Shown here piece after piece: positions 8,604-62,928 of a stretch of DNA of 64,000 bases. Positions within the stretch are counted from its first letter, which is position 1. Every line of letters starts with the position of its first letter. The position numbers and the translations under genes were made by a program. Source of the stretch: Longimicrobiales bacterium (lineage in GTDB: Bacteria > Gemmatimonadota > Gemmatimonadetes > Longimicrobiales > Gaopeijiaceae). The stretch spans positions 1,632,001 to 1,696,000 of the forward strand of contig CBDBCF010000001.1 of the NCBI GenBank assembly GCA_965202985.1, in the 5' to 3' direction. The notes below the pieces were generated by a model that did not search any database, was not told the origin of the DNA, and saw nothing but the letters and a program-made list of their open reading frames with translations.

Positions 8604-10268
8604 CTAGTGGCCGGCGGCGTGTCCGTCCTTGCGCGGCTCGGAGGCGGCCGCCCAGCCACGGGCCAGCTTGGCGACCAGCTGCGCGCCGCCGAAGCTCGTC
8701 CGAGTCCAGTCGGCGATCTCGTGGCCCAGGGCCTCCAACGCCGCCGCCGCTTCGGGACCGATCCTCTCGATGGCCACGCGTCGGCCCGACAGGTGGCGGA
8801 ACCGCGGCGCGTCGACCGCTTCCTGCGGGTCCATGCCGAAGACCAGCATGTTGAGCAGGAGCTGGACATGGCCTTGGGGCTGCATCGACCCGCCCATGAC
8901 TCCGAACGCCATGTACGGCTCGCCGTCGCGGGTCGCGAACGCTGGGATGATCGTGTGGAAGGGGCGCTTCCGGGGCGCGGCCTGGTTGGGGTGCCCGTCT
9001 TCGAGAACGAACCCGGCGCCTCGGTTCTGGAGGGCGAATCCGGTGCCCGGCACCACGATCCCCGAGCCGAACGACGAGTACACCGAGTTGATGAACGACA
9101 CCATGTTGCCGTCCTGGTCGGCCACCGCCAGGTAGATCGTCTCCGAGTCCGTGACGGCTCGGCCCGGCTCCGGGCGGTCCGCCGCCGCCCCCGGATCGAT
9201 GAGCTTGCGCCGGGCGTCCACGAACGCGGGCGCCAGCAGCGCCTCGGGATCGATCTCCATCGTCTCGGGGTCGGACACGTACCGGTGCAGGTCGGCGAAC
9301 GCCAGCTTCTTGGCTTCGATCAGGTGGTGCAGGTACTCGGGCGAGTTGTGGCCCATCGCCGCCAAGTCGAACGGCTCCAGCAGCTCCAGCATTTCCAAGG
9401 CCGCGATCCCCTGCCCGGCGGGCGGCAGCTCCCACACCGTCCAGCCGCGGAACTCCGTGCCCAGCGGCTCCACCCACCGCGGTTGGTGCGCGGCCAAGTC
9501 GTCCAGCGTCAAGAACCCGCCCAGGGCGTCCAGCCCTTCCACCAGCTCCCGCCCCAGCGCGCCGCCGTACAAAACGCCGGGCCCCTCTTGGGCGATCCGC
9601 CGCAAGGAGCGGGCCAAGTCCGGGTTGGCGAACCACTCGCCGGCCCCGGGCGCCCGCGCGCCGTCCACCAAGTACGTGGTGCGCGCGCCCTCGTCGCGGG
9701 CCAACCGATCGGCCGCCGCGGCCCACTGCTCCGCGATCACGGGCGTCACCGGGAAGCCCGTCTCGGCGATGCGGATCGCGGGCGCGAGCACGTCGGCCAG
9801 GTCCAAGCGTCCGTAACGCTCCACCAAGGCGTGCCAGCCCGAAACGGCGCCGGGCACGGTCACCGTCTCCGCGCCGCCGCCGGGCATCCGTTCGTGGCCC
9901 CGTTCGCGCAACGCCCGGGCGGACAGGCCGCTCCCGCTCCGGCCGCTGGCGTCCAGGCCGACCAGCTCGCCGGTATCGGCCCACCACAGCAGGGCGAAGG
10001 CGTCTCCCCCCGCGCCGGTCATGTGCGGCTCCACCACGTTCAGGACGGCCGCCGCCGCGACCGCGGCATCGACCGCGTTCCCGCCTCGGCTCATGATTTC
10101 CAGGGCCGCCGACGTGGCCAGGGGCTGGCTGGTAGCCGCCGCGGCCCGCGGCGCATAGACGGTGGAGCGGGCCGCCATGTCGGACCGACCACTAGATTGA
10201 ACGCCGTCGGCAGTCACGGGGAACGCCGCGGCCGCGAGCAGACAGACGACAAGTCGACGAGAGAACAT
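8604..10268 (-). CDS. ggt: Gamma-glutamyltransferase, secreted
   Basis: Signal peptide; GGNAVDAAVA, VVEPHMTGAGGD, catalytic ETIYLAVAD, LQNRGAGF, RPFHTIIP, GVMGGSMQPQGH. Confidence 0.92.
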   Translation of the reverse strand: MFSRRLVVCLLAAAAFPVTADGVQSSGRSDMAARSTVYAPRAAAATSQPLATSAALEIMSRGGNAVDAAVAAAAVLNVVEPHMTGAGGDAFALLWWADTGELVGLDASGRSGSGLSARALRERGHERMPGGGAETVTVPGAVSGWHALVERYGRLDLADVLAPAIRIAETGFPVTPVIAEQWAAAADRLARDEGARTTYLVDGARAPGAGEWFANPDLARSLRRIAQEGPGVLYGGALGRELVEGLDALGGFLTLDDLAAHQPRWVEPLGTEFRGWTVWELPPAGQGIAALEMLELLEPFDLAAMGHNSPEYLHHLIEAKKLAFADLHRYVSDPETMEIDPEALLAPAFVDARRKLIDPGAAADRPEPGRAVTDSETIYLAVADQDGNMVSFINSVYSSFGSGIVVPGTGFALQNRGAGFVLEDGHPNQAAPRKRPFHTIIPAFATRDGEPYMAFGVMGGSMQPQGHVQLLLNMLVFGMDPQEAVDAPRFRHLSGRRVAIERIGPEAAAALEALGHEIADWTRTSFGGAQLVAKLARGWAAASEPRKDGHAAGH

Positions 10269-53666: not shown

Positions 53667-55775
53667 ATGTCCCATTCCCGCTGGCGGCTTCCGAGCCTTA
53701 CCGTCGCGGTTTCGGCGCTCCTGGGCTGGGGCGTCGCCGCTTGGGTGGACTTGGCGCCCCGCGTGGAGGCCGACTTCTTCTTCGCGCCGGGAGACCCGCA
53801 GCTTCGGGAGTCGCGGGAGCTGATTGCGCGCTACCCCGGCGCGGGCACGGGAGACGCCGTGATCGTGCGGGCCGCGGCTCCGGCCACGGACTCGGAGTCG
53901 TACAGGGACCGGATCGACGCCCTGGGCCGGGCGCTGGCGGAAGTTCCCGGTGTCGCGAGCGTCTATTCGATTGCCGACCAAGACCGGACGAGCCCGTTCT
54001 GGAGCCGGATATTGGCCCCTGCGCCGGCGCGGGCGACGAACGTGATCGCCGTGCTGGAGGCGGAGCGGTCGGGGGGCGGCGTTGTGGATGCGGGCCCTGG
54101 TGCGGCCCCTGGCGTGGATGCGAGCGCCTTGATTCGGCGGCTCGAAGCGGTGTTGGAGGCTCACGAGGAAGACGACTTTGTGCTGCTGGCTTCGGGGACG
54201 CCGGTGGTCGTCGAACTCATCCGCAGGGGTTTGGCGCGGGACTTGGCGGTCTTCAGCACGGCGGCGCTCCTGCTGTTCGGTCTGGTGGCGATGGTGTTGT
54301 ACCGGGATGCGCGGCTCGTGGCCGGAACGCTGCTCTCGTGTCTCTGCGCCTGCGCCGGCACGTTGCTCGCGGCCCGGGCCTTCGGAATAGGGGTCGGGCT
54401 CCTGACGGCCAACATCGTGACGATCGTCTTCGTCCTTACGCTGTCGCACACGGTGTTCATCGTGGCCAACTGGCGGCGAGGGGGCGGCGCGGCCCAGGCC
54501 CTGGCGCGGACGATCGGGCCCTCGACGTGGTGCATGGCCACGACGGCCGCCGGGTTTCTCAGCCTGTGGACCACGTCGGCGCAGCCGCTTCGGGAGCTGG
54601 GCACCGCGGGCGCCCTGGGCACGGTCGTGGCGGCGGCGTCCGCGTTCGGCGTGCTGCCGGCGTGGCTGGGCGCGGCAAGGCGGTCGGCCTCGAAGGCGCG
54701 ACTGCCGCGTTCGCCGTTCGAGTCGAGGCTGCCCTTGATCCTTGGCGTAGTTGCCGTGGGCGTCGTTGGACTTGGGGTGCTTCGGCTGGACACCGACCCG
54801 AGCTTGCTGAGCTACTTCAACGCCGACGGACCGATCCGGTCGGGCCTGGAGGTCGTCGATCGGGAAGGGGGCAGCAGTCCGCTGTTGCTGGCTGTGGGCG
54901 CCGCAGACGGAGGGCGGTTGGACACGGGCGAAGGCTACGAGCGGATGTGGCGGTTCCAGGATTCGCTGGAAGCCGACCCGGCCACGGGAACCGTTCTGTC
55001 GCCGGCCCCGCTCCTTGCGCACGCGCGGACGCTGCCCCTTGCGGGGTTCCTGCCCGTGTCGTTGCTGGTGGACTTTCTGAACCGGCCCGAGTTCGGGGCC
55101 GTGGGGCGCGGGTTCGCGAGCGAGGACAGGACCGAGGTGCTGTATGCGGTCCGCATGAAGGAGGGCGGCAGGACGGAGCCGCGGGATTCGGTGGCCGCGC
55201 GGCTGGCGGCCCACGCGGGGGCGGCGGGGCTGGCCGTGAACGCGACCGGCGGGCTGTACGAGCTGCAGGATCGGCTGGGCACGCTGATCGCCGGAAGCCT
55301 CAAGGTCGGGCTCGGCGGGCTCTTGGCGCTGTTCCTGCTGGTCGGCGCGGGCGTGGCGCGCAACGCCGCGACGGCCCTGGCCATGCTCGCGTGCCTGTTG
55401 GCGGTGCCGTTGACCGTGCTGGGAACGTTCGGCCATGCCGGCGTGGCCGTGGACATCATCACGTCGCCCGCGGCGAGCGTAGCGCTCGCGATGGGCGTGG
55501 ACTCGATGATCCACCTGACCAGCAGGGTGCGCAGAATCGACGGAGGCGCGGCGCGTATCGGCGGCTCTTGGCAAGCGGCCAGGGCCGAACTCGCGGCCCC
55601 CGTAGCCACCGCGTGCGTGGTCATCTGCGCCGGGTTCGGCGTCTTTGCGTTCTCGGACTTTCCGCCGACGCGGCGCTTCGGGCTTGCGGTGGTGCTGGGC
55701 ACGGTTGCGGCCACGACCGCCGCGCTGGGCGCCTTGCCCAGGTTGATGACGCGGCAGCGGGTGGACGCAGCGTAG
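53667..55775 (+). CDS. MMPL/RND-superfamily transporter
   Basis: Two repeats of a periplasmic loop plus TM cluster; TTAAGFLSL, MGVDSMIH, FSDFPPTRRFG. Confidence 0.85.
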   Translation: MSHSRWRLPSLTVAVSALLGWGVAAWVDLAPRVEADFFFAPGDPQLRESRELIARYPGAGTGDAVIVRAAAPATDSESYRDRIDALGRALAEVPGVASVYSIADQDRTSPFWSRILAPAPARATNVIAVLEAERSGGGVVDAGPGAAPGVDASALIRRLEAVLEAHEEDDFVLLASGTPVVVELIRRGLARDLAVFSTAALLLFGLVAMVLYRDARLVAGTLLSCLCACAGTLLAARAFGIGVGLLTANIVTIVFVLTLSHTVFIVANWRRGGGAAQALARTIGPSTWCMATTAAGFLSLWTTSAQPLRELGTAGALGTVVAAASAFGVLPAWLGAARRSASKARLPRSPFESRLPLILGVVAVGVVGLGVLRLDTDPSLLSYFNADGPIRSGLEVVDREGGSSPLLLAVGAADGGRLDTGEGYERMWRFQDSLEADPATGTVLSPAPLLAHARTLPLAGFLPVSLLVDFLNRPEFGAVGRGFASEDRTEVLYAVRMKEGGRTEPRDSVAARLAAHAGAAGLAVNATGGLYELQDRLGTLIAGSLKVGLGGLLALFLLVGAGVARNAATALAMLACLLAVPLTVLGTFGHAGVAVDIITSPAASVALAMGVDSMIHLTSRVRRIDGGAARIGGSWQAARAELAAPVATACVVICAGFGVFAFSDFPPTRRFGLAVVLGTVAATTAALGALPRLMTRQRVDAA

Positions 55776-55782
55776 GGGTGGC

Positions 55783-56481
55783 CTACCGTTCCATCGCGTC
55801 GAGCTTGGGGTCGAAGTTGTCAAACGCCGACCGCACCAGCAGGAAGCCGACGCCCAAAGCGACGCCGGCGACGACGAGCACTGCGCCGGTCGCGAGCGCG
55901 ACGAGCCGACCCGGGCCAGCCTCGAGTGCCCAGCGCGCCCAGTCTTCCGGAGTGCTGAGCACCTCGTCGGCCACCAGTGTTGCAAATATCATTACCGTCG
56001 CGAAGGTGGCTACCCGTTGCGGGCTGTACTTTGCCACGGCGCCCGTGGCCAGGCAGGCCAAGGAACCACCGACCAACCACACGGACAGTGCCGCGCCCAG
56101 CCCCCATTCGAGCCGGTCTTCCAGGCCGAGGGAAGGCGCTGCGGTCCGGCCCATGAGCACGCCGGCGACGGCGGCCATGGGCAGAATGAAGAGAAAGTTT
56201 GCCATGAACCGGGCGCCTGCGACGGTAGCGCCGCGCACCGGCAACGACGCAACAAACTCCATCGTCCCTTCCAGCTTGTCTCTCAGGGTCGCGCCGACAA
56301 CGGCGCCAGCCGGCACCGCGGTAGCAACCATCAGAAAAAAGACTACGGCTTCGGACGTGGCTTTGCCGATCGCGACGAAGACGGCCAGACCGACCACCAG
56401 CAGGCCGTAGGAACGCAAGGTCGGCGTGGTGGCCCGGCGGATTTCCAGTCGCAGAAGGCGGCTAGTCTTGGGAGGGATCAT
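55783..56481 (-). CDS. ABC-2-type transporter permease
   Basis: About 6 TM segments; DKLEGTMEFVASLPVR motif; overlaps the ATPase 3' end. Confidence 0.8.
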   Translation of the reverse strand: MIPPKTSRLLRLEIRRATTPTLRSYGLLVVGLAVFVAIGKATSEAVVFFLMVATAVPAGAVVGATLRDKLEGTMEFVASLPVRGATVAGARFMANFLFILPMAAVAGVLMGRTAAPSLGLEDRLEWGLGAALSVWLVGGSLACLATGAVAKYSPQRVATFATVMIFATLVADEVLSTPEDWARWALEAGPGRLVALATGAVLVVAGVALGVGFLLVRSAFDNFDPKLDAMER

Positions 56482-57187
56482 GGGACTCCAGCGCTTCGTA
56501 CAAGATGCGGGAAAGGGGACTGTCGGGGTCGCGCCCCTGCAGTTCCTCCACGGATGCGTCGTCGACGAGCAGACCACGGCGAATCAAGACCACGCGATCT
56601 GCGATCTGCTCAATGTCTTCCAGGATGTGGCTGGAGAATAGGACGAGTCGTTCGCCGCCGCGTGGAACACAGTCGTTGATCACCGCCAGGAGCTGTCCGC
56701 GCATCAGGGGATCGATCGCCGAAGTCGGCTCGTCCAGGATCAGCACCGGTGGACGGTGGGCTTCGGCCGCCACCAAGGACAGCTTCACGCCCATCCCCTT
56801 CGAGAGTGTGCCGACCTTGGAATCCGACGGGAGCTCCAGCCGCCGAAGAAGATCTTGCGCGTACTCGTGATCCCACGACGGAAAGAACGTAGACAGGAAA
56901 GTGAGGTGCTCGGCCACGGTCATCCAGCCAAAGCCCTGCGCCTTCTCGGGAAGGAAGCCGATCTTCTCCCGGATCTCGGGCAGCTGGGAACGCACTTCGG
57001 CGCCGCCGACCTCCACTCGGCCGTCGTACTCTCTCGAACGGCCCCCGATTGCTTTCAGCGTGGTGCTTTTCCCGGCCCCGTTCGCGCCGATCATAGCCAC
57101 GCGCTCCCCTTGCCGTATGTGCAGGTTCATCGGCTCCAGGAAGAAGTTCGGAAAACGAACGCTGAAGTCCTTCAGGCGAATGTCCAT
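56462..57187 (-). CDS. ABC transporter ATP-binding protein
   Basis: Walker A GANGAGKST, signature LSKGM, Walker B LILDEPT, H-loop FSSH. Confidence 0.92.
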   Translation of the reverse strand: MDIRLKDFSVRFPNFFLEPMNLHIRQGERVAMIGANGAGKSTTLKAIGGRSREYDGRVEVGGAEVRSQLPEIREKIGFLPEKAQGFGWMTVAEHLTFLSTFFPSWDHEYAQDLLRRLELPSDSKVGTLSKGMGVKLSLVAAEAHRPPVLILDEPTSAIDPLMRGQLLAVINDCVPRGGERLVLFSSHILEDIEQIADRVVLIRRGLLVDDASVEELQGRDPDSPLSRILYEALESHDPSQD

Positions 57188-57212
57188 GCGAGCATCCGGC
57201 GCGCGCGCCGGT

Positions 57213-57881
57213 CTAGAGGAGGAAAAGGCGGGCCATGCCCAGAGCAACGAGAATGAACCATAACAACGCGGCCAGGCCCGCCGCCGACCATCGGCCCAGA
57301 TCGACGACGCGTCGGAAGCCCATAAACAGAAAGACGAACCAGGCCGCGTGAAGCAGCGTGACGCTCTGAGCGGCGGCGGCGAGAACCGGCTGACTCGGCG
57401 TAACCAGAGCCCCCAGACCAAGGCCGGCCTGCAGATCCTGGGGAGATGCGACCGCTCCATCGCTCGTGAAGCGAAGGAGCACGGCTGTGGCTATGCCATG
57501 AGCGGCCAGGATGGCCTCCCCGTAGAGCAAGAGAGAGAAGATGCGGCGGAAGGGCCGGTCTGTGTTGGTCAGTACCAAGATCGCCCACGCCAACGCTGCG
57601 AACAAGAGCGCCTTGATTCCGTTCAGAACGGGTCCGGCCAAGGCCCCCAGCCATATCAAGACCTCTGCGAATGCGGCTTGCTCTCCGGACGTCGCAACCG
57701 CGACGAACGGGAGCAAAGCATATGCCGACGCCAGCGACAACAGCCAGGCCGCCGCGAGCGGCGCAAACACGGGCCGATGCTGCCGTATCTCGCCCATGCC
57801 CGGCACCAGAAGACTTCCGAATCTCTTGGCGCCTGCACCGAATCGCGTTGCGCCGATTGCGTTCAGGATCGTCATGTTCAC
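57213..57881 (-). CDS. Yip1-like integral membrane protein
   Basis: 222 aa, about 5 TM segments, PFRRIFSLLLYG, W..FL..GFRR...LGRW..A; AAGGAG RBS; coupled to the upstream gene. Confidence 0.7.
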   Translation of the reverse strand: MNMTILNAIGATRFGAGAKRFGSLLVPGMGEIRQHRPVFAPLAAAWLLSLASAYALLPFVAVATSGEQAAFAEVLIWLGALAGPVLNGIKALLFAALAWAILVLTNTDRPFRRIFSLLLYGEAILAAHGIATAVLLRFTSDGAVASPQDLQAGLGLGALVTPSQPVLAAAAQSVTLLHAAWFVFLFMGFRRVVDLGRWSAAGLAALLWFILVALGMARLFLL

Positions 57882-58402
57882 TCCTTGTCGTACCAGTGGA
57901 TGGTGGATTGAAGGTTGGCGACGATGGCGTGCCGGACGCTTCGGCCAACCTCTACGAATCGGACCGTGTCGCGCGCGTCCACCCAGAACGTGGTCGGAAC
58001 CGCGATCACGCCGAGCGCCTCTGCCAGCTCGCCGTCAACGTCGCGAACCGTTCTTCGGCGAAGAGACGGCGGTATCCACCGAGCCGAGTCCATGGCCGAC
58101 TTCGGTGAAGCGACAATCCATCGCTCGATCCGGGTCATCTCGGGCGTCATCGCCTCCCAGAGGTCGAGTTCAGCCTTGCAGTGCACGCACGCGCGGTCCA
58201 CGTACATGATCGCTGCCGGTCCCGCGATGCGCAAGTCGGCGCCTAGGGTCGCATTCCAAGACCAAGGCGGCTCGTTCGATCCCGCCTCCGGTGCCGATCG
58301 CCTGGCAAGAGCCGCGGGCAACAAGATCGCCGCTGCAATGCATGGAAGGATCAACCATGCCAGCAGCTTCTTCTTCCACACCGAGTGTTCTCCTGAGGTC
58401 AT
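57878..58402 (-). CDS. Membrane-anchored thioredoxin-fold (TlpA/DsbE-like) CxxC protein
   Basis: N-terminal TM segment, active site CVHC, cis-Pro motif LGVIAVPTTFWVD; start at ATG 58402 or GTG 58381. Confidence 0.8.
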   Translation of the reverse strand: MTSGEHSVWKKKLLAWLILPCIAAAILLPAALARRSAPEAGSNEPPWSWNATLGADLRIAGPAAIMYVDRACVHCKAELDLWEAMTPEMTRIERWIVASPKSAMDSARWIPPSLRRRTVRDVDGELAEALGVIAVPTTFWVDARDTVRFVEVGRSVRHAIVANLQSTIHWYDKE

Positions 58403-58508
58403 TTCGAAAGTTCCTCCTGACCAGAATGGTTCGTTCCCTGTTGGCCTGGGCGCGTCCGAAAAACGCGCCCAGGCCAACAAATGTGCGGCTATCCGACCTG
58501 ACGATGCC

Positions 58509-58766
58509 CTAGGCCCTGCAGGCTCGCTTGGCGCAGAACTCGATCGGAATCGGCAGCGACGAGGTCAACGCAAAAGCGACGCACGTGCCACACCGAACTG
58601 CTCTCCAGAACGACGACCCTCGGCCAACCACTTCCTCTTGGTGACCCGTGCCGATGCTCGCGGCGGCCGGGTGGTTTCCAGAAGAAACCTCGGGCCTGGG
58701 CGCTGCGACGAGGATCGAGACAGCCAGAGTGGCCACGATTGCCTTGCGAGAGACAAGACGCTTCAT
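58509..58766 (-). CDS. Putative secreted Cys-stapled precursor peptide 3 (85 aa)
   Basis: GAAAGGAG RBS; MKRLVSRKAIVATLAVSILVAA...QEEVVGRG-SSFWRAVRCGTCVAFALTSSLPIPIEFCAKRACRA; appears only as the 3' part of track ORF 58509..59375. Confidence 0.8.
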   Translation of the reverse strand: MKRLVSRKAIVATLAVSILVAAPRPEVSSGNHPAAASIGTGHQEEVVGRGSSFWRAVRCGTCVAFALTSSLPIPIEFCAKRACRA

Positions 58767-58801
58767 GTTTTGCTCCTTTCGATTGGTGAAGTGCGACGGA
58801 A

Positions 58802-59095
58802 CTAGCCGTACGCGCGATAGCAGGCTATGCCGCAAAAAATGATGGCTTCGGGAGCGAAGAATGCGAGCATCGCCAATCCGAAGACGCTCCCGCCTCCTGC
58901 AAACAAGACGGCTGTCAGGCACGCTACGCAGACAAACTTGTCGGGACCGAAGCCAACCGGGTCCTCGACGTCCTGTTCGACCCGAGGTACGTCGTCCGCC
59001 GCGGATGCAACGGAGCGATCTCCGAAAGACGCAGCGTGCGCGACGGCCAAGATGCCCAGGAGAGCCGTCGTCTTGCGCATTATGTTCGAAGTCAT
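58802..59095 (-). CDS. Putative secreted Cys-stapled precursor peptide 2 (97 aa)
   Basis: GAAAGGAG RBS; MRKTTALLGILAVAHAA...VEDPVGFG-PDKFVCVACLTAVLFAGGGSVFGLAMLAFFAPEAIIFCGIACYRAYG. Confidence 0.82.
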   Translation of the reverse strand: MTSNIMRKTTALLGILAVAHAASFGDRSVASAADDVPRVEQDVEDPVGFGPDKFVCVACLTAVLFAGGGSVFGLAMLAFFAPEAIIFCGIACYRAYG

Positions 59096-59110
59096 TTCTC
59101 TCTCCTTTCC

Positions 59111-59392
59111 TTATGAAAACGCGTCGACACAGGCTGCGATGCAGCCCGCAGCAACCATGGTAGAGCCCGGGCGAGCACTGGCAACCAAGATGGCGCCCCA
59201 GCCACCCCAAACAACGGCCGCGGCGCCAACCGCGCAGGCCGCGCATCCCAGGGCGCTCCAGATTCCCGCGCCCGTGAAGTCTTCTGCGGCAATGTCGGAG
59301 GGGCTTCGAGTCTCGAACGTGGAGCCGATCTCGGTGCTTCCAGCGGTCAGCAGGGCGCACAGAACGAAGGTCCAAAGACGTGATTTCTTCAT
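59111..59392 (-). CDS. Putative secreted Cys-stapled precursor peptide 1 (93 aa)
   Basis: AAAAGGAG RBS; MKKSRLWTFVLCALLTAG...AEDFTGAG-IWSALGCAACAVGAAAVVWGGWGAILVASARPGSTMVAAGCIAACVDAFS. Confidence 0.82.
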   Translation of the reverse strand: MKKSRLWTFVLCALLTAGSTEIGSTFETRSPSDIAAEDFTGAGIWSALGCAACAVGAAAVVWGGWGAILVASARPGSTMVAAGCIAACVDAFS

Positions 59393-59438
59393 GTTTCTCT
59401 CCTTTTGTTGTCGAGTTGCGTGTTCACCAAGTTGGCGA

Positions 59439-59528
59439 TCACGAAAGCCTGGTAAGGGCCGTACGAACCAACAGGTACGCTTTGGAGATCAGAAGCACTT
59501 GCGTAAGGACTGCCATGGAGATGTACAT
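59439..59528 (-). CDS. Candidate 29-aa hydrophobic small ORF
   Basis: GAAAGGA RBS 7 nt before the ATG; MYISMAVLTQVLLISKAYLLVRTALTRLS; below the ORF-track size cut-off. Confidence 0.4.
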   Translation of the reverse strand: MYISMAVLTQVLLISKAYLLVRTALTRLS

Positions 59529-59656
59529 TGCGCTTTCCTTTCATTTGAGGCGCTGAATCGGAGCGCGTCCAGGCGCTCCAGTTGGCGACGCCGGCGATTC
59601 CGGCGACCGCGGGGGGCCGAGGCCCGGTTTCGATCTTCCTGCCAAGTTTCTTCGCG

Positions 59657-60298
59657 TCAGTCCATGGGCTTCCTCCTTTCCAGGGAGCGGGGTTCCGCGA
59701 CGGCTGGCGCAGCGGACGATCCGGTGCTTTCGCGGAGGACGACGGCCTCGCCCGACCAGATCTTGCTGAATGCGGTGTCGCCGATCGTGTAACGACCCAC
59801 TTGGGGGTCCAGCACGGTTACCCGACCATCGGGCGTCCACTCCGTGACTGTCACGAAGTGGCTCCTGCGGACCCAGGCGATGAAGGGCTTCGGAGTCTCC
59901 GCTATGCCGCCGCGTCGTAGGCGGTTCAGGGTGAGAGAGAGACCGAAGACCTCGGCTGCCCGGATCAACCCGCGGGCCCTCGTGCCCGTCGGTCCCGTGC
60001 CTGCCAGCGCGCCGAGCGAATCCGTGGCCGGCGTGTCCAAGCCCAGCACCTGGAACATGTTGGCGAGAGCGGCAGGACCGCAGTCGCTCAGCGTGGATTG
60101 CAGCACCATGCCTTCGCGTCCTTGGTAGGAGCCCCCGTCGGCTGCTACTTGAATCCGCGCCGCCCACCTGCCCAGGCGGGCAGGGTCCACTGCCAGAAGA
60201 GCTGTGGCAGCGACCGTGAGGACCAACCCCAGAAGGGTCGAGGCGGCGAGAGTCCGGCGGCGGGCCGAACGCGGGGTCTGCGGCTTGGGAGCGGGCAT
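59657..60298 (-). CDS. Stand-alone C39-family cysteine peptidase with an N-terminal membrane anchor or signal
   Basis: LQSTLSDCGPAALA (oxyanion Gln and catalytic Cys), HFVTV (His), VLDPQVG (Asp), FSKIWSG; no ABC domains; alternative GTG start at 60325. Confidence 0.88.
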   Translation of the reverse strand: MPAPKPQTPRSARRRTLAASTLLGLVLTVAATALLAVDPARLGRWAARIQVAADGGSYQGREGMVLQSTLSDCGPAALANMFQVLGLDTPATDSLGALAGTGPTGTRARGLIRAAEVFGLSLTLNRLRRGGIAETPKPFIAWVRRSHFVTVTEWTPDGRVTVLDPQVGRYTIGDTAFSKIWSGEAVVLRESTGSSAAPAVAEPRSLERRKPMD

Positions 60299-60504
60299 CC
60301 GGTGTCGGGTTGCGGGTCGTTCCACGATCGAACGAAGGAACGATGCACCCGGGAATTGGGCGCTTCCATGCTCAGATCGGCCCGACTTTTTTCGCCCCGC
60401 AAAAAGGGCCGAAAATCGGCGCTCCGGAGTCCCGAAAACGGGGGCTCACCCCCCGAGTGCACCCCCATCGGGGCACTTCGCACCCCCGCTGCCCCCCCGT
60501 CGTG

Positions 60505-60645
60505 CCGACCGAGGCGGCTTCCGGCCGGGCGAGGCGCCTGCGGCCGACGAGGGTCCCATGCCGACGGACGTTCCCACCGACGGACGCTTCCAACCGGCGG
60601 GTGCTTCCAGCCGACGGAAGCTCTCCCCGGCCAGGACGCTTCGGC
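60505..60645. repeat. Degenerate tandem array of about 8 units of 16-20 bp (consensus CCGACGGACGCTTCCA)
   Basis: Units at 60505, 60525, 60544, 60561, 60577, 60594, 60611 and 60628. Confidence 0.6.
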
Positions 60646-60712
60646 TGGCGGCCGTCGCCCACCGCCAGGGCGCCTCCCTACCGCGAAGCGCGCTTCGGGT
60701 CCCGCCTTGCGG

Positions 60713-61378
60713 CTAGAGCGCCTCCAGCGCGGCGAGGATGTCGGCGTTGGTGGGGCGAACCCGGTAGTCTTCCTCCACGAACCCCCAGCGCACGATCCCC
60801 TCCTGGTCGATCACGTAGGTGGCCGGGTGGGGTACGGGGCGGTTCGGGGGCGCGTCCGGGTTCAACAGGCCGTAGCGGTCGATCACCCGGTGGTCGGGGT
60901 CGGACAGCATGACGAAGTCAGGGGCCTCGCCTCCGTCGGCGACGATGCGGTCGATCATCAGCTGCTGCTTCTCGCGGTCGTCCACGGAGACGGCGACGAT
61001 CACGGTCTGGGCGGCGATCGCCGGGGGCAGCAGGTCTCTCAGCTCGCCGAGCTGACGGGCGCAGTGCGGTCACCAGTGTCCACGGTAGAAGACGAGGACC
61101 ACGTTCGCTGTGCCGCGGAAACCTGCCAGCTCCACGGTCTCGCCCCCGAAAGACTCCAGGGCGAAGAGCGGAGCCTCCGTGCCGGCCGACACCCGCTCCA
61201 AGTCCGTCGCGGGAAGGTCGTGGCCGTCGGTCGGCCCCAGGCTGGAGACTTGGGCCGAAGCCGTGCCGAAGCCGGGGAGTGCCCCGAGCACCGCGGCCAG
61301 GACGAGAGCGCGGGCGCCGTCTCGAAGGAGGCGCCGTGCGCGGAGGCGGGAGGTACTGAAGCAACGGGTCGAGGTCAT
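60713..61378 (-). CDS. AhpC/TSA peroxiredoxin-like selenoprotein (UxxC; UGA at 61070-61072)
   Basis: Track ORFs 61070..61450 and 60713..61003 share a frame. Readthrough gives APLFAL...VVLVFYRGHW-U-PHCARQLGEL...IVAVSVD...LSDPD..VIDRYG...PATYVIDQEGIVRW. Signal-like N-terminus. Confidence 0.9.
61040..61054 (-). promoter_or_regulatory. Candidate SECIS hairpin of the peroxiredoxin-like gene
   Basis: CAGCTC-GGC-GAGCTG, a perfect stem with a G-initiated loop, starting 15 nt after the UGA. Confidence 0.6.
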
Positions 61379-61653
61379 GGTCCGGGGCTGTCGTGGTGGC
61401 GGGGGGTCAGGCCCGTGCGGGGACGCTCGCGTTCGCGGGGCGCTCTCCAAGTCCGGGCGCTCCCCTCAATTATATGGTCAAGCCGCGATCGGTGGGACGA
61501 ACCGGCTGTGGTCCGTCGGGCCGCGTGCCGCGGCTCTTCATCGGTCCGGAAGTCGTCCCGCGCAAACGAGTAGGCCGGCCGGGACGGACCGGAAGCGCGC
61601 CGCCGAATGCGCGCCTCCAGCCCGTCCATCGGCCGACCGCCTGCTGGCGGCTC

Positions 61654-62928
61654 CTACCGCGCCGCCGCCAGCGCTTGGTCCAGGTCCTCGACGATGTCGT
61701 CCACGTGCTCGATGCCGACGGACAGCCGCACCAAGTCCTCGGAGACGCCCGTGGCCTCGAGCTCTTCGTCCGACAGCTGGCGGTGCGTCGTGGTGGCCGG
61801 GTGGGTCGCCAGGGTCTTGGCGTCGCCGATGTTCACCAGCCGCGTGACCAGCTGCAGCGCGTCGATGAAGCGCGCCCCGGCGTCGCGACCGCCCTTGATG
61901 CCGAAGCTCAGGATGCCGGCCGCGCGGCCCCCGCAGTACTTGTCCAGCAGCGGCTTCTCGGGGCTGTCTTCGAGTCCGGCGTAGCGCACCCACTCGACTT
62001 GGTCGTGTTGGCGCAGGTGCTGGGCCACGGCGAGGGCGTTCTCGCAGATGCGGTCCATCCGCAGGGGAAGGGTCTCCAGCCCTTGCAGCGCCAAGAACGC
62101 GGTGTGGGGCGAGATCGCCGCCCCGATGTTGCGGAGCGGCACGACCCTGGCGCGGACGATGTACGCCAGCTCGCCCACCGCCTCGGTGTAGACCACGCCG
62201 TGGTACGACACGTCGGGCTCGGTCAGGCGGGGGAAGCGCGCGGCGTTGGCCTCCCAGTCGAAGGCGCCCGAGTCCACGATGGCGCCGCCGATGATCGTGC
62301 CGTGACCGCCGATGTACTTGGTGACCGAGTGGACCACGATGTCGGCCCCGTGCTCGAACGGACGGCACAGGTACGGTGTGGGCACCGTGTTGTCGGCGAT
62401 CACGGGCACCCCCCGAGCGTGGGCCGCTTCGGCGACGGCCTCCAAGTCCACCACGTTACCGGCCGGGTTGCCGATCGTCTCCAGGTACACAGCCTTCGTA
62501 CCGTCGTCGATCAGGCTTGCCAGGGCGTCCACGTCGCCTGGGGCGGCGAAGCGCGTCTCGATGCCGATCTGGGGGAACGTGTGCGCGAACAGGTTGTAGG
62601 TGCCTCCGTACAGCGTGGACGTGCTGACGATGTTGTCGCCCGCCTCGGCGATCGTGAGCACCGCGTAGGTCGTTGCCGCTTGGCCCGACGACAGCGCCAG
62701 CGCTCCCACGCCCCCTTCCATGGCGGCCAGCCGCTTCTCGAGCACCGCCGTGGTCGGGTTCATGATGCGGGTGTAGATGTTCCCCTCGACTTTGAGGTCG
62801 AAGAGGTCCGCACCGTGCTGGGTGTCGTCGAACGCGTACGCGGTGGTCTGGTAGACCGGGACCGCGACGGCCTTCGTGGTGGGTTCCGGCTCGTAGCCGG
62901 CGTGAACGGCCTTTGTTTCTATGCGCAT
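61654..62928 (-). CDS. metY: O-acetylhomoserine aminocarboxypropyltransferase (sulfhydrylase)
   Basis: VPVYQTTAY, NIYTRIMNPT, DNTV, HSVTKYIGGHG (PLP Lys), LVNIGDAKTL, HPATTTHRQL. Confidence 0.93.
   Translation of the reverse strand: MRIETKAVHAGYEPEPTTKAVAVPVYQTTAYAFDDTQHGADLFDLKVEGNIYTRIMNPTTAVLEKRLAAMEGGVGALALSSGQAATTYAVLTIAEAGDNIVSTSTLYGGTYNLFAHTFPQIGIETRFAAPGDVDALASLIDDGTKAVYLETIGNPAGNVVDLEAVAEAAHARGVPVIADNTVPTPYLCRPFEHGADIVVHSVTKYIGGHGTIIGGAIVDSGAFDWEANAARFPRLTEPDVSYHGVVYTEAVGELAYIVRARVVPLRNIGAAISPHTAFLALQGLETLPLRMDRICENALAVAQHLRQHDQVEWVRYAGLEDSPEKPLLDKYCGGRAAGILSFGIKGGRDAGARFIDALQLVTRLVNIGDAKTLATHPATTTHRQLSDEELEATGVSEDLVRLSVGIEHVDDIVEDLDQALAAAR

Follow-up and report, generated by a model that had tools for sequence, protein, structure and literature searches.

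A 64,000-nt stretch of DNA from a Longimicrobiales bacterium (contig CBDBCF010000001.1, positions 1,632,001–1,696,000; hereafter, the window) carries on its minus strand, at 55783–60325, a cassette of eight co-oriented genes, which were delimited by open reading frame (ORF) calling and direct reading of the sequence. The cassette encodes a stand-alone C39 peptidase, three small four-cysteine precursors, a thioredoxin-like protein, a Yip1-like membrane protein, and the ATPase and permease of an ATP-binding cassette (ABC) transporter. With moderate confidence, we propose that it makes Sec-exported, C39-cleaved, and oxidised peptides that would be extruded by a pump which also protects the producer, the product being a microcin-like multi-peptide toxin.

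According to this proposal, type A and type B precursors, accompanied by up to four more members, would carry a Sec-type signal peptide followed by an acidic propeptide and would cross the inner membrane. Once outside the cytoplasm, they would be cut at the conserved [VIL]-x-G-x-[G/Q] by the stand-alone C39 peptidase in its membrane-anchored form, and a dedicated TlpA/ResA-like oxidoreductase would form or shuffle two disulfides between the Cx2C and Cx3C pairs. The predicted products, helical peptides of some 50 aa that are compact, near-neutral, and strongly hydrophobic, would be pulled from the producer membrane by the YknW-like protein and the ABC-2 transporter for self-protection and possibly release. 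The A+B pair, with its extras, would be the active product, and its members most likely act jointly on competitors' membranes, as a microcin-like toxin or a bacteriocin of two or more peptides. The model is drawn from the signal-like starts of the precursors, the extracytoplasmic type of the thioredoxin, the anchored and intact C39 enzyme, the Gly motif at the core junction, and the pump with its YknW-like partner.

All eight genes were found on the minus strand at the positions and in the order given by the initial annotation of this DNA. The set recurs elsewhere as a unit: scanning one genome per species gave 79 loci, of which Gemmatimonadota contributed 46, and in 36 of these 46 the genes for C39, thioredoxin, Yip1-like protein, ATPase, and permease stood in the same order on one strand (BLAST). 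Five more loci had a partial set, namely L016, L028, and L030, which are cut at the locus or contig end, L073, whose CPFC ORF was missed by BLAST, and L032, where no thioredoxin was matched; five loci end inside or just past C39. Precursor genes follow C39 also in the 41 loci keeping all or part of the cassette, and the permease gene follows the ATPase gene in 37 loci. The shared gene order, together with the conserved small ORFs, makes the arrangement far more than a chance one.

The strong ribosome-binding sites ascribed to most of the genes were seen for six of the eight. AAGGAG or AGGAGG-type Shine–Dalgarno (SD) sequences precede the three precursor genes (AAGGAG in each case) as well as those for the thioredoxin and the Yip1-like protein, and the permease gene has GGAG in front of it; no obvious SD was present, on direct reading, before the C39 or ATPase starts. 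The last four genes are coupled or closely spaced, as annotated: 2 nt separate the thioredoxin stop from the Yip1-like start and 25 nt lie between the Yip1-like and ATPase genes, while the ATPase and permease genes overlap by 20 nt. The G+C content of the cluster was 63.8% versus 69.6% in the remaining window.

Radical SAM, Lan, YcaO, and glycosyltransferase enzymes, which had been reported as absent, were indeed not matched by any Pfam or NCBIfam family in the eight genes and six flanking ORFs. The cluster carries no class-defining enzyme of lanthipeptides, sactipeptides, YcaO-dependent products, or glycocins among the peptides made by ribosomes and modified after translation (RiPPs). Since proteolysis and disulfide formation are the sole modifications implied, "RiPP" is a loose label for the system.

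The C39 peptidase (59657–60325, minus strand) consists of 222 aa from a GTG start, with an alternative ATG start nine codons into the ORF. It is a member of Pfam family PF03412 (E 5e-21; 75.4 bits versus a cut-off of 22) and the sole PF03412 match in this genome (76.7 bits in the genome search). An Arg-rich N-terminus, often with RR in homologues, is followed by one hydrophobic segment at approximately residues 28–46 and then by the peptidase domain. Residues C82 and H156, which we take to be catalytic by analogy with the PCAT (peptidase-containing ABC transporter) and ComA structures, and Q76 and D173, taken on the same grounds to support them, were invariant in an alignment of 21 sequences. 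The family profile matched the peptidase domains of PCAT1, ComA, and LahT in the PDB (E 6e-18 to 2e-9); by this comparison, its closest solved relatives are true double-glycine peptidases. The homologues formed 85 clusters of 139–264 aa, and the named ones were from Longimicrobiales and Gemmatimonadota metagenome-assembled genomes (MAGs).

By textbook accounts, C39 peptidases belong to bacteriocin exporters and work in the cytoplasm. In a PCAT, the C39 domain is fused to a six-helix exporter and a nucleotide-binding domain; here, it is a 222-aa ORF with precursor genes next to it. A search among longer proteins revealed no fused relatives of this C39, which is weak evidence. Lys and Arg residues around the hydrophobic anchor of 21 homologues averaged 4.0 on the N-side versus 2.8 on the C-side, a bias that modestly favours an outside-facing peptidase domain. 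Complex prediction with C39 residues 58–205 and residues 24–93 of the first precursor gave a score of 0.00, which is no verdict either way.

The three precursor genes, all on the minus strand, are pre1 of type A (59111–59392; 93 aa), pre2 of type B (58802–59095; 97 aa, with a second Met at residue 6), and pre3, a divergent extra member (58509–58766; 85 aa). None of them matched any Pfam or NCBIfam family. The initial annotation regarded them as precursors with stapled cysteines, and 110 further ORFs of the same design were found between the C39 and thioredoxin genes of other loci, giving a set of 113; L005_8498, an Arg-rich alternative frame, was left out, as were three of 114 Cys-pattern candidates without a start codon in range. 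Members are built of a basic N-terminus and a hydrophobic run resembling a Sec signal, a variable Pro/Ala/Ser-rich spacer turning acidic, a Gly motif, and a core. The core contained exactly four Cys in all 113 precursors, arranged as Cx2C...Cx3C in 111. The loop separating the Cys pairs was 28 residues long in 48 precursors and 30 residues long in 21, and the tail beyond the last Cys was 3–8 residues in most. Strong SD sites precede most of the precursor ORFs.

Between 13 orthologous precursor pairs, 136, 125, and 285 differences were counted at codon positions 1, 2, and 3, respectively; this third-position excess fits coding sequence. The same pairs showed 214 synonymous versus 231 non-synonymous codon changes, which indicates fairly fast protein evolution. 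A profile of 36 type A sequences retrieved 165 representatives at E ≤ 1e-3, and 63 at 1e-10, among 1.84 billion proteins. Among the best 150 of these 165 matches, 148 were of 160 aa or less; 144 of the 148 had the Cys pattern, 115 of the 144 had the Gly motif as well, and 133 of the 148 had a basic-then-hydrophobic N-terminus. A word-indexed protein search with the precursor profile gave 12 proteins, of which four were named, all as "hypothetical protein", and none had a Pfam family. Given the recurrence across loci, the coding signal, and the profile matches sharing the Cys pattern and signal-like start, the small ORFs are, as judged from their sequences, real genes of a compact family that has not yet been given a name.

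The Gly motif was searched for as [VILMFAYW]-x-G-x-[GQ] in the 24 residues that lead up to the first Cys, an anchor that fixes positions -4, -2, and +1 by construction, and was present in 105 of the 113 precursors. At these 105 sites, position -1 was canonical in 64 (G in 28, A in 26, S in 10) and otherwise included R (15), Q (12), T (5), and D (3). Positions -5 and -6 were mostly D or E, -7 was mixed (A, T, V, E, P), and +2 was often W or P. Leaders of double-glycine bacteriocins are short and amphipathic, end in G-[GAS], and have hydrophobic residues at -4, -7, and -12; here, the N-terminal portion has a median length of 50 aa and resembles a signal peptide, and 64 of the 105 sites have G, A, or S at -1. 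Trimming at GxG had been suggested; a Gly motif does stand just before the core, although it is better written as [VIL]-x-G-x-[G/Q], and the motif data fit either a cut after the canonical -2 Gly/-1 position or one after G-x-G.

The putative cores have a median length of 50 aa, a median grand average of hydropathy (GRAVY) of 1.34, and 35% Ala+Gly. Typing with hidden Markov models (HMMs) separated type A, with a PGS-like turn in the loop, from type B, with G-x-S-x-x-G and often P-E before the third Cys. Type A was directly followed by type B in 35 of 42 loci, with zero to four more divergent members after them, and the number of precursor paralogues varied from two to six. In pre1, the F-T-G-A-G motif precedes a core with C50-x2-C53 ... 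C84-x3-C88; residues G41, G43, C50, C53, G64, C84, and C88 were invariant in 36 type A sequences. The signal-like N-terminus of pre2 ends in AHA-AS and is followed by an acidic spacer, P-V-G-F-G, and a core with CVAC ... CGIAC; pre2 was typed as B by HMM, and its BLAST relatives occupy the same position in other loci. A different core is found in pre3, in which V-V-G-R-G is followed by CGTC ... CAKRAC (Cx4C) with a loop of 15 residues and a net charge of +4; it forms a singleton cluster, and its BLAST relatives are weak.

An AlphaFold2 model of pre1 built from a 36-row alignment had a mean pLDDT (predicted local distance difference test) of 68. Its linker, residues 19–34, was of low confidence, while the core was modelled as helices 43–63, 65–73, and 77–92 with pLDDT of 73–84 per 10-residue block. 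A helical-hairpin product had been proposed; the modelled pre1 core has three helices and is not a plain two-helix hairpin. C50 and C53 lie on the first core helix of the model and C84 and C88 on the last, which would allow C1–C4 and C2–C3 staples if the helices were antiparallel. Foldseek gave no match of the pre1 model to the PDB, and the VIA-align wide search returned generic helical rows only, with an uninformative Z ≤ 5.7; the best score in an ESM Atlas look-up of pre1 was 0.80, below the useful range.

A fifth Cys, Cys12 (59357–59359), is located in pre1 within the hydrophobic signal-like stretch L-x-L-C-L-A-L-L-G, a feature shared by the type A precursors of many Longimicrobiales loci; overall, 25 of the 113 precursors have a leader Cys. 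A lipobox has a small residue just before its Cys. In type A precursors, L, M, or I stands just before the conserved signal-segment Cys, and a lipoprotein reading of these proteins was rejected. In one locus (L021:6535-6885), a type A-like precursor was found upstream of C39, not downstream, and the contig ends soon past C39. Two longer proteins, P0197 (2079 aa) and P0199 (310 aa), matched the precursor profile, P0197 in 12 separate stretches; these could be repeat proteins of similar units or an artefact of composition.

The membrane-anchored thioredoxin-like protein (57878–58402, minus strand; 174 aa from ATG) has one N-terminal hydrophobic segment and the active site CVHC. C72, C75, and the cis-Pro loop V135-P136 were invariant in 30 homologues. 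The profile of these homologues matched StoA, DsbF, ResA, CcmG, DsbE, and TlpA chains in the PDB (E 3.6e-9 to 2e-3), while the single-sequence Pfam and NCBIfam scores were under the cut-off. By profile, the protein is a member of the extracytoplasmic, membrane-anchored TlpA/ResA/DsbE class, in line with the extracytoplasmic role assigned to it earlier. In 37 of 39 loci, the active site reads C-x-[H/Y/F/W]-C. Having His or an aromatic residue just ahead of the second Cys is typical of the oxidising or isomerising members of the fold (DsbA, CPHC; DsbC, CGYC; PDI, CGHC) rather than of the reducing ones.

The Yip1-like protein (57213–57875, minus strand; 220 aa) has five hydrophobic segments. It matched Pfam Yip1 (PF04893) with E 5.6e-5 (23.5 bits versus a cut-off of 28.6) and NCBIfam YknW_fam (NF052650) with E 6.5e-8 (32 bits versus 110). 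Among 28 homologues, YknW_fam matched 14 at E ≤ 0.01 over nearly the full model, always under the cut-off, and Pfam Yip1 matched two. The scores do not place the protein in the YknW/Yip1 family, and its likeness to it appears remote. In locus L002 (L002:9467-11702), the Yip1-like gene was matched in two BLAST pieces about 1.4 kb apart, so an insertion is possible there.

The ATPase (56462–57187, minus strand; 241 aa) belongs to PF00005 (E 1.9e-27), and its identity across other loci was 41–74%. Its best NCBIfam match was PmtA, the phenol-soluble modulin (PSM) exporter ATPase (E 4.6e-40; 138 bits versus a cut-off of 350), followed by GldA, DrrA, and lantibiotic-protection ATPases, all under their cut-offs. 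The ABC-2 type permease (55783–56481, minus strand; 232 aa) has six hydrophobic segments and matched ABC2_membrane_3 (E 1.2e-5) and ABC2_membrane_5 (E 2e-3), both under the cut-off. A YknWXYZ-type pump, which has a MacB-type (FtsX) permease and a membrane fusion protein, is not indicated by these genes: the permease matched ABC-2 families only, and a fusion-protein gene is absent from the cassette.

The cassette is patchily distributed. With the C39 protein as a probe (E ≤ 1e-15), it was matched in 20 of 401 sampled genomes of the phylum; in one family it was present in 14 of 70 genomes, the genome of the window not being counted, and in one genus in 11 of 24. The same redoxin gene stands directly upstream in 21 loci and an M28 peptidase gene directly downstream in 15. 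Five cassette-less genomes of that genus all retain the redoxin gene; in three of them (L087, L088, L089), the redoxin and M28 genes are directly adjacent, leaving an empty site. In the fourth and fifth, the redoxin–M28 site (L090:1288-6069 or L086:1122-7001) is occupied by other genes: the fourth encodes an anchored protein of 374 aa along with an ABC ATPase, a membrane protein of several segments, and two small Cys-rich ORFs with signal-like starts, and in the fifth, a small ORF containing Cys is accompanied by genes for a six-bladed propeller protein and for IS21 IstB. The cassette is an accessory unit at a variable site, which suits a conflict system better than a housekeeping one.

Two characterised systems provide precedents for parts of the proposed route. 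FapD of the Pseudomonas Fap amyloid system has been reported as a Sec-exported stand-alone C39 protein whose active-site Cys is needed in the periplasm and whose own substrate is still unknown (PMC5557850); the cassette C39 resembles it in being a stand-alone enzyme with a putative export signal, and this precedent supports the outside-cytoplasm processing step of our model. Amyloid subunits and a pore of the outer membrane serve as substrates in the Fap system, whereas those of the cassette would be small four-Cys peptides. Neither a FapF-like barrel nor Asn/Gln amyloid repeats were seen in the eight genes.

The second precedent is SDP of Bacillus. SdpC, its precursor, is Sec-exported. According to the report consulted, SDP is a 42-aa peptide with one disulfide, processed from SdpC, and YknWXYZ, with the Yip1-family protein YknW, protects Bacillus against it (PMC4887032); this lends support to the YknW-like protein and ABC pump as a protective unit in our model. 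The two systems would share a hydrophobic disulfide peptide of about 40–50 aa derived from a larger precursor and a Yip1-family or Yip1-like protein combined with an ABC pump (PMC4887032). They differ in that no relatives of SdpA, SdpB, or SdpI were seen here, the YknW match is under the cut-off, and the processing in the cassette would be by C39. In addition, YknYZ is of the MacB type and has a membrane fusion protein, while the transporter of the cassette is of the ABC-2 type without a fusion protein.

Class II bacteriocins and class IIa microcins matured by PCATs are cut by C39 where position -4 is hydrophobic and -2 is Gly, and several peptides are encoded side by side; the putative cassette site was anchored on the same two positions, and its precursors are likewise encoded next to one another. 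Microcins also have Gly/Ala-rich hydrophobic cores, some with disulfides, and the putative cores are similar in this respect. In contrast to PCAT systems, the cassette C39 is a membrane-anchored, unfused protein of about 200 aa and the transporter is of the ABC-2 type; the precursors have a signal-like start and a 50-aa N-terminal part, with G, A, or S at -1 in only 64 of 105 sites; and no small immunity gene is recognisable. Sublancin and other glycocins (BdbA/BdbB) and the Blp/thermophilin group (BlpG) combine a cluster-encoded thioredoxin-fold enzyme with helical peptides that contain Cys, and in glycocins the helices are stapled by two nested disulfides. The cassette differs from these oxidoreductase-dependent bacteriocins by having neither a glycosyltransferase nor a PCAT, by its Cx2C...Cx3C spacing, and by its presumably diderm host with what appears to be Sec-type export. 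PmtABCD, a pump of the ABC-2 type, clears hydrophobic peptides out of the producer membrane; it is the best family match of the cassette ATPase, yet far under the family cut-off, and PSMs have no signal peptide, Cys, or C39 step, unlike the cassette precursors.

The arrangement was not found described in full-text literature searches, which covered article texts. The part of a review of RiPP leader proteases that was consulted describes C39 only within PCATs acting before export (PMC10885120), and the consulted part of a survey of marine Gemmatimonadota gives only Nif11-type bacteriocin and microcin annotations, with no mention of C39 there (PMC11316326). The initial annotation had not recognised the architecture as a described class. 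This stands for the arrangement as such, while FapD and YknWXYZ/SDP are precedents for its parts, and the architecture is therefore a new combination rather than one wholly without parallel. Every part is from a known family, and C39-cut disulfide-bonded bacteriocins are already known; what is new is the combination of a Sec-type pre-pro-peptide, an anchored stand-alone C39, a TlpA-like oxidoreductase, a YknW-like protein with an ABC-2 pump, and the four-Cys family. Only tentatively would we go further and regard the cassette as the first member of a new class of unmodified-peptide toxins of diderms, defined by Sec pre-pro-peptides, a double-glycine-type site cut outside the cytoplasm by an anchored stand-alone C39, two enzyme-made disulfides locking very hydrophobic mini-proteins, an obligate A+B pair, and YknW-like/ABC-2 immunity; on this tentative reading, the cassette, FapD, and look-alike loci in other phyla would jointly make extracytoplasmic C39 processing a general maturation route.

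Several observations weigh against the toxin reading. No outer-membrane exit component is present within the cassette, and the host is presumably a diderm. At roughly one site in three, position -1 holds R, Q, T, or D, an unusual choice for C39 enzymes. The net charge of the cores lies between -2 and +2 in 103 of 113 precursors; such neutral, very hydrophobic cores are unlike most cationic bacteriocins and fit peptides that stay in a membrane. The charge bias bearing on C39 topology is modest, the Yip1/YknW assignment is under curated cut-offs, and the permease is of the ABC-2 type, not of the MacB type as in YknYZ. Locus L032 lacks a thioredoxin gene between the precursors and the Yip1-like gene, and all of the genomes are MAGs.

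The near-neutral, hydrophobic, membrane-helix-like cores make a membrane-resident role a live rival. In that case, the products would be disulfide-stapled helical micro-proteins staying in the inner membrane of the producer with a channel, envelope, or stress role, and C39, thioredoxin, and transporter would serve their assembly and turnover, not warfare. The core composition (median GRAVY of 1.34, 35% Ala+Gly, charge near zero) would suit such proteins; hydropathy scores the cores as transmembrane segments, the top fold-search rows were membrane helices, though at Z 5–6 these are uninformative, and no outer-membrane exporter was found among the cassette genes or six flanking ORFs. We nevertheless consider this role rather unlikely: the cassette has a patchy distribution, being present in 20 of 401 genomes while close relatives have empty sites, its two to six paralogues change fast, with non-synonymous changes about as frequent as synonymous ones, and the variable site carries other Cys-peptide cassettes. 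Patchiness, paralogue variation, and a variable site suit conflict systems better than housekeeping parts.

The toxin reading also has to be weighed against a "split PCAT", in which a cytoplasmic C39 would remove the whole 50-aa leader, the ABC-2 transporter would export the cores, and thioredoxin would oxidise them outside. The C39 domains of bacteriocin systems characterised to date all act on the cytoplasmic side in the account of the leader-protease review consulted (PMC10885120), the ATPase is similar to PmtA and other hydrophobic-peptide exporters, and the charge bias of the C39 anchor is modest. Yet the N-termini of 133 of 148 independent family members are Sec-like and are not the amphipathic double-glycine leaders of 15–30 aa, the transporter is of the ABC-2 type with separate subunits and does not have the PCAT exporter fold, basic residues are more numerous on the N-side of the C39 anchor, and FapD is reported to be active as a C39 in the periplasm (PMC5557850); taken together, this makes a split PCAT quite improbable. 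A role of the peptides as secreted signals (pheromones) instead of toxins seems highly improbable to us. C39 enzymes also mature competence and quorum peptides, and ComA is among the closest solved relatives of the enzyme, but no sensor kinase or regulator was found in or beside the window cassette, 50-aa peptides as hydrophobic as these would be poor diffusible signals, and a dedicated YknW-like protein with an ABC pump looks protective.

A conserved family with a stand-alone C39 behind a membrane anchor, and with likely substrates bearing Sec-type signal peptides, would add to the ways in which peptides are known to mature; to date, FapD is the sole studied case of a periplasmic C39. The precursor family itself comprises about 165 representative clusters, unannotated and without a Pfam or NCBIfam model, in a little-studied and mostly uncultured phylum, and offers an invariant four-Cys scaffold amenable to expression. 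The cassette would also be a second, independent pairing of a Yip1-like protein and an ABC pump beside a putative processed disulfide peptide, which bears on the function of bacterial Yip1 proteins.

Stand-alone C39 genes of similar appearance were seen in other phyla. A MAG of Neomarinimicrobiota (L045:6833-9000; 38% G+C) encodes a stand-alone C39 with a hydrophobic N-terminus and, about 1.2 kb downstream, a 90-aa ORF (8728–9000) with a signal-like start, D-Y-D-V-V-G-G, a hydrophobic Gly-rich core, and two Cys, a similar design in another phylum. Four loci of Abditibacteriota/Armatimonadota (L051, L056, L069, and L072, e.g., L072:245-2364) have a three-gene row with a Fap-like layout. In order, the genes encode a small protein of about 100 aa that starts like a signal peptide and contains D-V-T-G-R-(D)-C-G-C, a stand-alone C39 with a signal-like start, and a protein of 320–410 aa ending in Phe, a possible outer-membrane barrel.

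C39 and pre1 are separated here by a gap of 264 nt (59393–59656), versus a few tens of nucleotides elsewhere (e.g., 65 nt in L004); this gap may be a regulatory region or a remnant. A 51-aa ORF at 59389–59544 was considered as a fourth precursor and rejected, since it is without Cys, a signal-like start, or family features, and also because the C39–precursor gap is short in other loci. A promoter scan gave a single weak site, within pre1, and terminator-like sites were largely intragenic. An Rfam scan of 55000–62000 gave nothing over noise.

The cassette is flanked on one side by a convergent MMPL transporter gene, a SnoaL-like gene, and then an M28 peptidase gene, and on the other by an AhpC/TSA redoxin gene and a gene for a pyridoxal phosphate-dependent enzyme of Cys/Met metabolism. 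The AhpC/TSA-type redoxin gene (60713–61450, minus strand) has a signal-like N-terminus and an in-frame TGA at 61070–61072 (...FYRGHW-U-PHC...). The in-frame TGA, in the context FYRGHW-TGA-P[YFW]C, was found in all 21 loci with the redoxin gene upstream of C39 and in all five cassette-less relatives; the protein is probably a selenocysteine UxxC redoxin. As it is present in five of five related genomes without the cassette, it was rejected as a part of the cassette.

Ten DNA or unlabelled sequencing runs contained at least a quarter of the sampled words of 55783–60325. Four runs labelled as sponge metagenome, from a single study, contained 91–93% of the sampled words of the stretch, which is a habitat hint only.

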